64,000 nt of DNA, from the NCBI RefSeq assembly GCF_056746865.1, contig NZ_CM163382.1; one strand, given 5' to 3'. The position numbers are program-made. Positions 41,901 to 47,900 of this stretch are shown here, one piece after another. Numbering within the stretch: the stretch's first letter is position 1; each line of letters opens with the position of its first letter.

Positions 41901-44900
41901 AAATCAAAGCGACAGGGATAAGGAAAAGAGTGGATTTAAGCATTGAGCAGATAGCGAAATGGATAAATCCAAAACTGAATGGCTGGATAAATTATTACGG
42001 GCGATATACCTGTTCGGAATTATACAGCGTGTTCAGATATATCAATAAAGCACTGGTGAGGTGGGGGCGTAAGAAATATAAAATGCTCAGCCGATACAAG
42101 ACAAGAGCCTCAAAATTTCTGGAAGAAATGGCGAAGCGAAGTCCACAGTTGTTTGCCCACTGGCGTCTGAAGATGAGAGGCGGACTTGTTTGATGGGAGC
42201 GGTATGAGCCGAGAGGTTCACGTACCGTTCTGCGAGAGGCTGCGGGGGAGGTTCCTGCGGCCTACTCACCTGGTAATGAATGAAGACGACTGCAAAATAA
42301 GAAGAGGAAATGCAGCAGAATTATTTTCAGGGATACGGCACATCGCTATTAATATTTTGACGAATGATAAGGTATTCAAGGCAGGGTTAAGACGTAAGAT
42401 GCGAAAAGCAGCCATGGACAGAAACTATCTGGCGTCAGTCCTTGCGGGGTGCGGGCTTTCGTAATCTTTCCCTGGATGTGAAAAGCAGCTGCGGACAGGG
42501 AAAGATCATCAGAAGTACACTTTTTGTACTAAACAATTCGCATTTTATGTTTAAAAATTGAGATATTCCTCATTACCTGAAGCTGTTTTTTATTGCTTAT
42601 ACATGATCAAATACTCCTTACATAATTAAGGAGAACAAAATGGAACTTAAAAAATTGATGGAGCATATTTCTATTATCCCCGATTACAGACAAGCCTGGA
42701 AAGTGGAACATAAATTATCGGATATTCTACTGTTGACTATTTGTGCCGTTATTTCTGGTGCAGAAGGTTGGGAAGATATAGAGGATTTTGGGGAAACACA
42801 TCTCGATTTTTTGAAGCAATATGGTGATTTTGATAATGGTATTCCTGTTCACGATACCATTGCCAGAGTTGTATCCTGTATCAGTCCTGCAAAATTTCAC
42901 GAGTGCTTTATTAACTGGATGCGTGACTGCCATTCTTCAGATGATAAAGACGTCATTGCAATTGATGGAAAAACGCTCCGACACTCTTATGACAAGAGTC
43001 GCCGCAGGGGAGCGATTCATGTCATTAGTGCGTTCTCAACAATGCACAGCCTGGTCATCGGACAGATCAGGACGGATGAGAAATCTAATGAGATTACAGC
43101 TATCCCTGAACTTATTAACATGCTGGATATTAAAGGAAAAATCATCACAACTGATGCGATGGGTTGCCAGAAAGATATTGCAGAGAAGATACAAAAACAG
43201 GGAGGTGATTATTTATTCGCTGTAAAAGGAAACCAGGGGCGGCTAAATAAAGCCTTCGAGGAAAAATTTCTGCTGAAAGAATTAAATAATCCAGAGCATG
43301 ACAGTTACGCAATTAGTGAAAAGAGTCACGGCAGAGAAGAAATCCGTCTTCACATTGTTTGCGATGTCCCTGATGAACTTATTGATTTCACGTTTGAATG
43401 GAAAGGTCTGAAGAAATTATGCGTGGCAGTCTCCTTTCGGTCAATAATAGCAGAACAAAAGAAAGAGCCCGAAATGACGGTCAGATATTATATCAGTTCT
43501 GCTGATTTAACCGCAGAGAAGTTCGCCACAGCAATCCGAAACCACTGGCACGTGGAGAATAAGCTGCACTGGCGTCTGGACGTGGTAATGAATGAAGACG
43601 ACTGCAAAATAAGAAGAGGAAACGCAGCAGAATTATTTTCAGGGATACGGCACATTGCTATTAATATTTTGACGAATGATAAGGTATTCAAGGCAGGGTT
43701 AAGACGTAAGATGCGAAAAGCAGCCATGGACAGAAACTACCTGGCGTCAGTCCTTGCGGGGAGCGGGCTTTCGTAATCTTGCCCTGGTACAGTAAACAAA
43801 CGAAAGTTGTTATTTCAATGGTCAGGGCAAGAGCATGAAGTGTTTACTACACACTATGCTCTTGTCCTGGAGTCAGGTCTTGTTTGGAGGGATAAATGGT
43901 AGATATTGTCGAGGCCGATAAAACGGATATTTATTTCATTCAGGAGAGTGTTTATGGCAAAATCGGGTTGCCAGCTTTTGGTAATACAATAGGACCATCC
44001 GCACAGCAAGTTGTTAAAAAGGTATTCGCTGTCGTTAAAGAACGAGATAAGACACATGCAAAACAGAGATTATTGTTGGAATATAATGGTAACAAACTCT
44101 GGATGAATGCTATTGATGGCAGTGAAGCTATCCTACCAACAGAATTTTCTAAGCGATACGAACTTTCATTATTTAATACTACTAATTTTGGAGAAGATCC
44201 TTTTCCTGATGTTAATTTATATAATAATATGAAATCAAGTTTTTTTGTAAGGTTTGGTGGAACATCCCATCCCGAGGCTTGGGCTATTTATAATGCAAGT
44301 ACGAAAGAGGTTAAATATATAGAAACTGCAAGAGAAATTGATAAAATATTCAGTGATTTTAACTTGAGTGGTACATTGCCAATTCACATTGGTCGATGAT
44401 TTTTTAAATTGTGTGATTAAATAATTGAACATTAATGATGATTTATAGCATTATTATTCTATAACATGAATAAACGGATTGAATGTGTTATGTTAAAAAT
44501 AAGTTTATACGTAATAATATTGTTATTTTCCTTTCAGATTAGTGCAGCCATTACTAGCAAGGAAAGTGAGGTTGTTTCACCATTATTAATGGATGTTAAT
44601 TCTTCACTAACAATGGAAAATATTTCTGAATTATCCACATCATCGGAACCATCGCAACAGGGGGTATTTCCTGTAATATGTACTCGACTTCATCCTGGCT
44701 CCGTAATGAAACGCCAGTTATTAACCGGCTGGGGGCCTGTTTTTATAATTGGTGATGATCCTTTTTCTCTGCGCTGGATGAGTGAACATCTGGAGATCCT
44801 TAAATCGCTAAATGCCCTTGGTTTGGTTGTTAATGTTGAATCAGTAGAACGAATGGAGGTATTACAGCAGCGGGCTGATGGGTTATTGTTATTGCCAGTT

Positions 44901-47900
44901 ATCTGCGATAATTTCGTGCAAACTCTGCAATTAAATGCTTATCCGGTATTAATCACAGAGATGGAAATATCACAATGATTAATAACATAATTACTGCAAA
45001 TAATATCGTAATTTTGAAAATGGTAATTCTGTTCACGGCACCATAATTAGAGTTATGTCTTGTATCCGTTCAGTATAATTTCACGAATGCTTTATTAACT
45101 GGATGCGAGATTGCCATTCATCAAATGATAAAGACGTCATCGCAATTGATGGAAAAGCGCTTCCACACTCCTATGATAAAAGTGGTCGCAGGGGAGCGGG
45201 CTTTCGTAGTCTTAGCCCGACTCTCCCCGGCCCTAAACACAACACCCACTCACCACAACCTAAACTCATCCGCATCCCGCCATGCCGGAAACTTTTCTCT
45301 ATATTCCCGCAATGCCGCCATCGACAGCTCCGCATCAATGCGCGTTGCCTGATGCGCGTCGGCGGTGGCGATAATCTCGCCCTGTGGATTAATCACCCGG
45401 CTGTCACCGCGATAATGGCAGCCGTTGCCATCGCTGCCGACGCGATTGCATCCCGCCACATACGCTTGATTCTCAATCGCGCGGGCCGTCAGCAATGCCT
45501 GCCAGTGCAGAGAGCGCGGAGCCGGCCAGTTGGCGACGTACAGGGCGAGGTCGTAATCGTTGAGATTGCGCGACCACACAGGAAAACGTAAGTCGTAGCA
45601 CACCAGCGGCAAAATACGCCAGCCGCGCCATTCCACAATCACTCGCGCATTGCCCGCTTTATAATGCAGATGCTCATCTGCCATGCGGAACAGATGACGC
45701 TTATCATAAAAATGTACCGTGCCGCCTGGCTCAACCAGCAAAAAGCGGTTAACCGAACCAGACTCCGTTTGTAATGCAACACTGCCTGCAATCAGCGCAT
45801 TGCACTGCTGCGCTTTGGCTGTCATCCAGTTCACTACGTCATCTTGTGCTAGCGACGAAGCTGCCGCTTCCATGGCAAAGCCGCTGGTAAACATCTCCGG
45901 TAGAACGATCACATCGCGTCCGGTAATATCTTCCAGTTGACGATCAAAATGACGCAGGTTGGCAGGACCATCCATCCACACCAGTGGTTGCTGCAAAAGC
46001 GTAATCTTCAAACCAGGCACGGTGTACAACTCCTTTATGCGAAGGGTTTTATAACTTTAACACCTTATCAGGCAGTTGCCTTAGCGCAGAATAAATTGAT
46101 AACAAATGCTGATATTGGAAATATCTGATTTGCAAATTATCGTGTTATCGCCAGGCTTTAGGAGGTTAATAACATGGGCAGGATAAGCTCGGGAGGAATG
46201 ATGTTTAAGGCAATAACGACAGTCGCCGCTCTGGTCATCGCCACCAGTGCAATGGCGCAGGATGATTTAACCATTAGCAGCCTTGCAAAGGGCGAAACCA
46301 CCAAAGCTGCGTTTAATCAGATGGTGCAAGGGCATAAGCTGCCTGCATGGGTGATGAAAGGCGGTACTTATACTCCCGCACAAACCGTAACGTTGGGAGA
46401 TGAGACGTATCAGGTGATGAGCGCGTGCAAACCGCATGACTGTGGCTCGCAACGTATCGCTGTGATGTGGTCCGAGAAATCTAATCAGATGACGGGGCTG
46501 TTCTCGACTATTGATGAGAAAACGTCGCAAGAGAAACTCACCTGGTTGAATGTGAACGATGCGCTTTCGATTGATGGTAAAACGGTGCTGTTCGCGGCGT
46601 TGACCGGCAGCCTGGAAAACCATCCGGATGGTTTTAATTTTAAATAATTAGCGGATAAAGAAACGGAGCCTTTCGGCTCCGTTATTCAATTACGCGGCTT
46701 CAACTTTTCGCACTTTCTCCGGCAACTTTACCGGCTTCGTCGCAAGCTCTTCCGGATCAAAGTCATCGACATTAATACTGCGCAGACGGCTTTCTTCAGC
46801 TTTCACAAGAATAGCGGCTTCATCTTTATCAATCAGCCCCTTCGCCAGCGCGTTATGCGCCAGTTCATCCAGACGGGTAAACGGCAGGTTTTTACCCAGC
46901 TCTTTACAGATCCGCTGATGAATTGGGTCGGCGGCAATCACATCCACCAGCGCCTCTTCCAGTAAACCAACCGGGTTATGCTCGCTCGGGGTCAGGTACT
47001 GACCGCGACCAATACGTGAACGGGTGGCGTTCGGCACTTGTAAAATCTTCGCCACCTTATGATCCAGCTTGTCAGACGGTGCCAGATAATGACGTCCGGT
47101 CGGGAAGATCACCACATTCAGCAGCCCGGCAACCACGCGGTTCGGGAAGTTTTGCAGTAAATCGTCCATCGCCTGCTCTGCCTGATACAGCGCATCCTGT
47201 ACGCCCCAGTGCACCAGCGGCAGGTCGGCTTCATTACGGCCTTCGTCGTCATAACGCTTCAGAACGGCAGAGGCGAGGTAAAGCTGGCTTAAAATATCCC
47301 CCAGACGTGCCGAGATACGCTCGCGACGTTTCAAGCTGCCGCCCAGCACAGCCATCGAGACATCAGAAAGCAGGGCGAGGTTGGCGCTCAGGCGGTTCAG
47401 GTGCTGATAGTAGCGTTTAGTGGCATCGCCGGTTGGCGTGCTGCTGGTTAAACCGCGCGTCAGGCCCAGCCAGAAGCTGCGAACTTTGTTGCTACCGACG
47501 TGACCGATATGTTTGAACAGCAGTTTATCGAACGCGTTTACGTCATTGTTCTTCGCCGCTTCCATCTCTTCCAGCACGTACGGATGGCAACGAATCGCCC
47601 CCTGACCGAAGATCATCATGCTACGGGTCAGAATGTTGGCCCCTTCAACGGTGATGGCAATCGGTGCGCCCTGGTAAGCACGGGCCAGGAAGTTGCTCTG
47701 CCCGAGCATAATGCCTTTGCCACCAGTGATATCCATCGCATCAATAATCGACTGCTGCCCACGGTGGGTACAGTGATACTTAACGATAGCCGACAGCACG
47801 GCAGGTTTTTCACCGAGCATAATGCCGTAGGTAATCAGCGATGCCGCAGCATCCATTACATAAGCGTTTCCGGCAATACGCGCCAGCGGCTCTTCAATCC

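Follow-up and report, generated by a model that had tools for sequence, protein, structure and literature searches.

We analysed a 64,000-nucleotide stretch of Escherichia coli chromosome (RefSeq assembly GCF_056746865.1, contig NZ_CM163382.1), called here the window, and focused on two adjacent open reading frames (ORFs), ORF1 and ORF2. The window runs from the aspV-linked type VI secretion system 1 (T6SS-1) island into yafV (45250-46029, minus strand), ivy and fadE. ORF1 and ORF2 form a two-gene module at the distal end of the T6SS-1 cargo region, adjoining yafV. Sequence comparison gives ORF2 a clear family identity in an atypical context and assigns ORF1 to an undescribed family with effector-like genomic behaviour. 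Our tentative interpretation is that the pair forms a T6SS effector-immunity module. The features at the locus are as follows, with positions counted along the window and lengths in amino acids (aa).

43896-44399, plus strand: ORF1, candidate T6SS cargo effector, 167 aa (RefSeq WP_000227713.1, 'hypothetical protein')
44490-44978, plus strand: ORF2, candidate periplasmic immunity protein or chaperone, 162 aa (RefSeq WP_001306803.1, 'integrating conjugative element protein')
44400-44489, plus strand: AT-rich intergenic spacer between ORF1 and ORF2, which holds the alternative ORF2 ATG at 44466
42500-43787, plus strand: complete insertion sequence (IS) ISEc1 (ISAs1-family, H-repeat; repeat families, terminal TTTCGTAATCTT motif), left boundary of the module
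44998-45213, plus strand: ISAs1 fragment with an internal deletion, where K-12 has yafF, directly before yafV, right boundary of the module

A first-pass annotation of this DNA had proposed two ORFs here, one encoding a cytoplasmic protein of 167 aa and the other a protein of 170 aa with a signal peptide, and both are present. The 170-aa form of ORF2 starts at the ATG at 44466, and RefSeq and the alleles at loci L003 and L031 use 44490. The good start contexts credited to both hold for ORF1, which has a GGAGG Shine-Dalgarno sequence 5 nt before its ATG, but not for ORF2, neither of whose ATGs has a convincing Shine-Dalgarno sequence. The description of an atypical, AT-rich segment between mobile elements was accurate. 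The module (43788-44997) has a GC content of 35.2%, with 34.7% in ORF1 and 37.4-37.8% in ORF2, compared with 55.1% in yafV, 55.6% in fadE and 56.3% in the T6SS core; that is, about 35% against a backbone of about 55%. The ISEc1 copy to the left encodes a transposase at 42640-43776, and its terminal repeat ends at about 43787; its left end, at about 42500, is approximate. The ISAs1 fragment closes the module on the right. A scan of the module for promoters and terminators gave nothing above shuffled sequences, and a weak promoter-like match at 44383-44410 was at chance level.

Could the two ORFs have arisen by chance in AT-rich DNA, or be confined to this strain? A segment of 1321 bp spanning both is 100% identical in many complete E. 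coli genomes, for example that of strain 118UI. Judged by conservation, both ORFs are real genes, because identical DNA occurs in hundreds of complete E. coli genomes and diverged alleles have ratios of nonsynonymous to synonymous substitution rates (dN/dS) of 0.21-0.33.

Family membership of the two proteins

ORF2 matches TIGR03765 with 120.6 bits (cutoff 59.75) over profile positions 1-105 of 105, and it matches PF11072/DUF2859 with an independent E-value of 2.4e-28. These matches place it in the PFL_4695/TIGR03765/DUF2859 family, a family of periplasmic accessory proteins of MPF_G-type type IV secretion in integrating conjugative elements (ICEs), so the earlier statement that the ORFs show no diagnostic motif was wrong for ORF2. 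A single hydrophobic segment lies at its N-terminus (residues 4-22, counted on the 162-aa form), and ISA|A comes next. Judged by hydropathy scan alone, this N-terminus resembles a Sec signal peptide, and a periplasmic protein is predicted. The rest of the protein consists of a low-confidence linker and a DUF2859/PFL_4695 domain that is thioredoxin-like but has no CxxC.

An alignment of 23 DUF2859 members contains no invariant cysteine. Its invariant residues include G88, D90 and S93, which lie at the beta1/alpha1 junction, and Y151-P152. On the structural models, G88/D90/S93 and Y151-P152 would occupy the CxxC and cis-proline positions of the thioredoxin fold. Every family-invariant residue is kept in ORF2, including G-D-D-P-x-S and Y-P. 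A sequence-profile search of the PDB with the ORF2 family gave nothing meaningful.

In the literature we found no functional study of DUF2859/PFL_4695 beyond that of ICEclc Orf71178. This DUF2859 protein has a Sec signal peptide, a thioredoxin-like predicted fold and a diffuse envelope localisation; its deletion lowers ICEclc transfer 10-fold without abolishing it, and a chaperone-like role has been proposed (PMC10018362). The canonical context of the family is illustrated by a Salmonella ICE (L013), whose DUF2859 protein is 46% identical to ORF2. There, the gene order is VirB1-like transglycosylase, DUF2859, TraD/VirD4, DtrJ-like, RAQPRD ... TraC, and none of the four proteins upstream of DUF2859 is similar to ORF1. 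ORF2 stands outside this context: the window and the identical RefSeq locus hold no type IV secretion system (T4SS) gene and no other ICE gene.

ORF1 is predicted to be a soluble protein with a calculated mass of 18.9 kDa, and a hydropathy scan detected no hydrophobic segment in it. Its AlphaFold2 model is beta-rich with a single C-terminal helix (predicted local distance difference test score 84, predicted template modelling score 0.79). There is no match to ORF1 in Pfam, NCBIfam, PHROG or PADLOC. Against the PDB it has no solved-structure relative, and a sequence-profile search with the family gave one match at chance level (E = 0.06). A Foldseek search of AFDB50 with the ORF1 model matched only uncharacterised members of its own family, from Cedecea, Pantoea ananatis, Citrobacter koseri, Yersinia, Morganella, Enterobacter, Burkholderia and others.

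A word-indexed protein search with ORF1 returned E. coli proteins only, including a 68%-identical allele, and a search for related loci with a five-sequence family alignment returned E. whittamii and Morganella loci only. Exhaustive phmmer recovered about 20 distant relatives of about 190 aa with 30-40% identity. ORF1 is thus a short-form member of an uncharacterised family with a typical length of about 190 aa; the Escherichia-type proteins (window and P0002) are without a segment of about 28 aa present in the long forms. G99, P102, L108 and Y109 are invariant in the alignment, and E17, G65, D101, P104, F116, G121-G122, P126 and A128 are nearly so. The resulting motifs are G-x-D-P-x-P...L-Y and G-G...P-x-A. 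None of 20 family members matches Pfam, NCBIfam, PHROG or PADLOC. Our literature searches, which included both WP accessions and DUF805 with T6SS and were incomplete in coverage, found no paper on this pair or on the ORF1 family.

Orphan cassettes with an ORF1 homolog occur in Serratia (L005), Morganella (L006, L025-28) and metagenomic loci (L010, L020, L021, L022), inserted among housekeeping genes. The next gene encodes 135-157 aa, and its start often overlaps the stop of the ORF1 homolog. Five of the six such partners scanned have four hydrophobic segments, and the one in L021 has two. The partner gene is often followed in turn by a third, for a small DUF805 or DUF805-like membrane protein. 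This three-gene arrangement recurs in Serratia and in several gammaproteobacteria of metagenomic origin, at 10001-11380 of L005, 3452-4926 of L010, 5443-6796 of L020 and 6001-7288 of L022. It joins an ORF1-family member (about 190 aa) to a four-segment protein (about 150 aa) and a DUF805-type membrane protein, and we found neither a family annotation nor a paper for this combination.

Two contexts are of other kinds. At L004, the ORF1 homolog begins 16 bp past an orphan hcp, with a convergent hydrophobic 145-aa ORF beside it. In Salmonella, a degenerate copy lies between sseK1 and rpoC. Two PLSDB entries appear to be chromosomal sequence filed as plasmids: NZ_CP141089.1, a 4.9-Mb E. coli replicon, and NZ_LN868946.1 (L032), a 141-kb Salmonella Senftenberg sequence with rpoBC, thiCEFSGH and hemE. 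Plasmid matches from either are therefore no evidence of mobility.

Conserved pairing, T6SS linkage and selection

The pair of ORF1 and a DUF2859 gene is found in four diverged alleles, all at the tail of T6SS cargo. In the E. coli allele L003, ORF1 is 68% and ORF2 75% identical to the window, and the genes upstream encode beta-propeller-like, TIGR02270-like and CxxC thioredoxin-like proteins. The allele of L016-18 is more distant (ORF1 59%, ORF2 49%) and occupies an IS-free locus in a relative that shares only 77-81% identity with E. coli in its core genes. The order at L016 is VipAB / Hcp-VgrG-DUF4123-538aa-313aa-PAAR-47aa-ORF1-DUF2859, with yafV about 9 kb beyond. At L031, the same beta-propeller and thioredoxin-like genes come first, followed by a truncated fragment of a long-type ORF1 and then by a DUF2859 gene. 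E. whittamii carries a 95% allele at the corresponding place, and in STEC299 the pair comes after Tle1/DUF3304 cargo modules.

Co-occurrence with T6SS genes in other genomes, a check proposed in the first-pass annotation, is therefore seen at the T6SS-1 tail in the window, L003, L016-18 and STEC299, and again in the homolog just past hcp. The idea of a T6SS-linked toxin-immunity cassette gains partial support, since the conserved pair is tied to T6SS cargo and the relatives of ORF1 sit in effector-immunity-like cassettes, with toxin and immunity as putative activities. In a neighbour-joining tree, three T6SS-linked DUF2859 proteins form one clade within enterobacterial DUF2859. Among the enterobacterial proteins around this clade, one (Salmonella L013) is confirmed as ICE-borne. 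The single clade is consistent with a single capture.

Both genes are under purifying selection. Among three intact alleles, pairwise dN/dS is 0.21-0.32 for ORF1 and 0.29-0.33 for ORF2, with dS ranging from 0.40 to 1.4. When the window is compared with L003, dS comes to 0.40-0.57 in the pair and 0.076 in the adjacent yafV. These values indicate that both genes are constrained and that the alleles are much older than the surrounding chromosome. Allelic hyper-divergence of this sort is a pattern typical of effector-immunity modules.

The census of 5426 complete E. coli genomes found ORF1 DNA in 559 (about 10%) and ORF2 in 757. ORF2 lies beside ORF1 in about 541 genomes by megablast and in 12 more with a divergent allele, against 554 for ORF1. 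By these counts, essentially all ORF1-positive genomes have an adjacent ORF2, with PT62 as a known exception: this strain has lost the T6SS at the locus, and its ORF1 is intact and its ORF2 split by IS1. The excess of ORF2 is due to a 96.9%-identical allele, whose carriers include ABU 83972 and Nissle 1917. The ABU 83972 locus has IS630 and a type I secretion system adhesin in place of ORF1, and its ORF2 is a pseudogene with a frameshift and a nonsense codon. The immunity-only cassette that the first-pass annotation had offered as an option loses ground here, because the ORF2 that stands without ORF1 is decayed.

A conserved trio of genes precedes the pair in other alleles (L003 6931-9576; L024 2464-4139; L031 1-1025) and is missing from the window. 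It encodes a 327-aa beta-propeller-like protein, a 411-aa TIGR02270-like protein (87 bits, under the cutoff of 206.8) and a cytoplasmic 137-aa thioredoxin-like protein with WCNNC. An assembly gap, made up of unknown bases, occupies positions 6727-6969 of L003 (in OU349849.1) immediately before the T6SS-cargo genes, so the apparent junction there with phage tail-fibre-assembly and catalase genes may be a scaffolding artefact.

The main T6SS cargo region of the window comprises genes for Hcp (32936-33454), VgrG (33675-35633), a DUF4123 adaptor (35630-36472), a 523-aa protein (36494-38065) and a 336-aa protein (38132-39142). RefSeq labels the VgrG of the identical locus as truncated, with its C-terminus missing. 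Neither the 523-aa nor the 336-aa protein matches NCBIfam, and identity to their 538-aa and 313-aa counterparts at L016 is only about 23-25%, so they may be another uncharacterised effector-immunity pair. An ISAs1-family element split by a group II intron (39294-42475) lies directly before the ISEc1 copy. The intron has Rfam matches at 40451-40568 (D1-D4) and 42195-42270 (domain V/VI) and encodes an intact 416-aa reverse transcriptase/maturase (40943-42193). It is the only hit of the Rfam scan, and it lies outside the ORF1/ORF2 module. Finally, the 162-aa ORF at 45103-45591 (plus strand), which begins within the ISAs1 fragment and crosses yafV in antisense orientation, is almost certainly no gene.

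A proposed effector-immunity pair and its alternatives

Our preferred interpretation, to which we assign a probability of about 0.4, is that the pair encodes a T6SS effector and its immunity protein, the gene for the latter having been acquired in a single capture from an ICE. ORF1 would be a cargo effector of the Hcp type, with the envelope of a target cell as its site of action. At about 19 kDa, it fits the size range usually given for cargo of the Hcp lumen, and clues to its activity would come only from the conserved E17, D101 and Y109 and the two family motifs. ORF2 would be a redox-dead protein of thioredoxin fold, taken once from the T4SS operon of an enterobacterial ICE and exported by Sec to the periplasm. 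There, in the producer and its kin, it would bind and neutralise ORF1 as the cognate immunity protein. The periplasm is the usual location of immunity to envelope-acting effectors. Secretion through the T6SS, toxicity and neutralisation are the steps that we infer for this pair. A broader proposal is doubtful in our view. It holds that ORF1 is the founding member of a new family of antibacterial effectors that is novel in fold, is carried by Hcp and ranges over Enterobacterales, Burkholderia and marine gammaproteobacteria, and that the Escherichia lineage recruited the immunity protein from DUF2859.

Several observations weigh against an effector-immunity module. ORF1 has no recognised effector marker (MIX, FIX, PAAR, Rhs or adaptor-bound domain) and no recognised catalytic fold, and T6SS genes adjoin the ORF1 family in only two of about nine independent genomic contexts. 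The partner varies by lineage, being a protein with four transmembrane (TM) segments elsewhere and a DUF2859 protein in Escherichia-type alleles, and the 28-aa segment of the long forms is lacking from E. coli-type ORF1. Because ORF2 keeps all the invariant residues of ICE DUF2859 proteins, a retained chaperone-like role fits at least as well as immunity. The decay of ORF2 where ORF1 has been lost indicates that it is not kept as an orphan immunity gene, and PT62 shows the reverse case, an intact ORF1 with a disrupted ORF2 in a strain without T6SS at the locus. Moreover, the comparison with published small effectors by sequence was partial, and Ssp3 (20.6 kDa) was set against the Serratia homolog (21.9 kDa) by mass.

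Might ORF2 instead have kept the ancestral DUF2859 role, that of a periplasmic, chaperone-like helper to a secretion machine spanning the envelope, and assist T6SS-1 assembly or a periplasmic client? The module would then be an accessory or chaperone module, with ORF1 as a cytoplasmic partner or an unrelated cargo-handling factor and not a toxin. This would agree with the complete set of family-invariant residues in ORF2, with the cytoplasmic CxxC thioredoxin-like and TIGR02270-like genes just upstream in other alleles, and with the envelope-localised, non-essential and proposedly chaperone-like Orf71178 (PMC10018362). However, only some 10-14% of complete E. coli genomes have the module, and K-12 is without it, so it cannot be a general assembly factor. 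The relatives of ORF1 also lie far from secretion machinery and have private membrane-protein partners. We consider this explanation unlikely.

We likewise see little likelihood that the segment is debris, in which ORF2 would be a relic of a decayed ICE and ORF1 a hitch-hiker, trapped between ISAs1 copies without any function connected to the T6SS. The ICE family of ORF2, the AT-rich and IS-flanked segment, and promoter signals not above chance are all consistent with decay, as are the pseudogenised ORF2 of ABU 83972, an allele shared with Nissle 1917, and the IS1-split copy of PT62. Yet no further ICE or T4SS gene is nearby, and the T6SS-linked DUF2859 proteins form a single clade. The pair recurs in four alleles, including one at the IS-free locus of a distant relative, and both genes have dN/dS of 0.2-0.33 over dS of up to 1.4.

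A toxin-antidote or stress cassette that acts inside the producer with a membrane partner (4-TM/DUF805, or DUF2859) would make the T6SS adjacency a coincidence of island hotspots. Most cassettes of the ORF1 family are indeed orphans between housekeeping genes with no T6SS gene in their flanks. Orphan placement is, however, normal for Hcp-dependent cargo effectors, such as Ssp4 in the ilv cluster (PMC12669606), and a coincidence would have to account for two independent direct adjacencies, to hcp at 16 bp and to the PAAR/T6SS-1 tail. This explanation is distinctly improbable.

The first-pass alternative that the ORFs are this strain's versions of K-12 ykfM/yafU has next to no chance of being right: the aspV-yafV interval is shared, but the K-12 genes encode membrane proteins on the opposite strand and have no similarity to ours at the protein or DNA level. 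In searches with K-12 yafT, ykfM and yafU, blastp gave best E-values of 0.11-17, and tblastn and blastn against the K-12 locus gave nothing. The module thus resembles the K-12 yafT-ykfM-yafU-yafF interval in lying between tRNA-Asp (aspV) and yafV, with the ISAs1 remnant corresponding to yafF, and differs from it in its genes. K-12 homology resumes at 45191, inside the ISAs1 fragment.

What would an effector-immunity module at this locus mean? It would add an effector family that has no Pfam or NCBIfam model and no solved-structure relative. Among complete E. coli genomes, about 10% carry ORF1, including those of many human isolates, and relatives occur in Serratia, Morganella, Yersinia, Pantoea, Citrobacter and Burkholderia. 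The reuse of a protein of conjugation machinery as T6SS immunity would be a case of cross-system exaptation. It would also give the first functional access to DUF2859, poorly understood despite its conservation in ICEclc/PAPI-1-type elements, and offer a hint of the partner that it binds, or the threat that it counters, in ICEs. If the pair is not such a module, the result is of value for annotation: ORF2 is no evidence of an ICE here, and the interval is not orthologous to ykfM/yafU.

The cassettes of the ORF1 relatives resemble the orphan, Hcp-dependent ones of Ssp4/Sip4 and Ssp6/Sip6 in Serratia marcescens, in which a small domain-less protein is followed by a four-helix inner-membrane protein in a two- to three-gene insertion among housekeeping genes (PMC12669606). 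Ssp4 itself is a 35.5-kDa alpha-helical protein with membrane-spanning helices (PMC12669606). In contrast, ORF1 is 167 aa long and beta-rich and has no hydrophobic segment, and we found no sequence relation between the two. We rejected the Serratia homolog of ORF1 as Ssp4 on fold and locus. At 21.9 kDa, it was also rejected as Ssp3, Ssp5 or Ssp6 (20.6, 29.4 and 24.5 kDa), by mass only, which is a weak ground. The E. coli partner differs from the Sip4 type as well, being a predicted soluble periplasmic DUF2859 protein and not a membrane protein.

ORF2 agrees with ICEclc Orf71178 and other DUF2859 proteins in its profile match, size, signal peptide, fold without CxxC and invariant residues. Its surroundings set it apart. 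Unlike in Salmonella L013 and the ICEclc gene table, no VirB1-like transglycosylase lies upstream and no TraD/VirD4 downstream. Whereas ICE DUF2859 genes belong to T4SS operons, ORF2 sits where a T6SS island ends, and its partner is an unrelated cytoplasmic protein.

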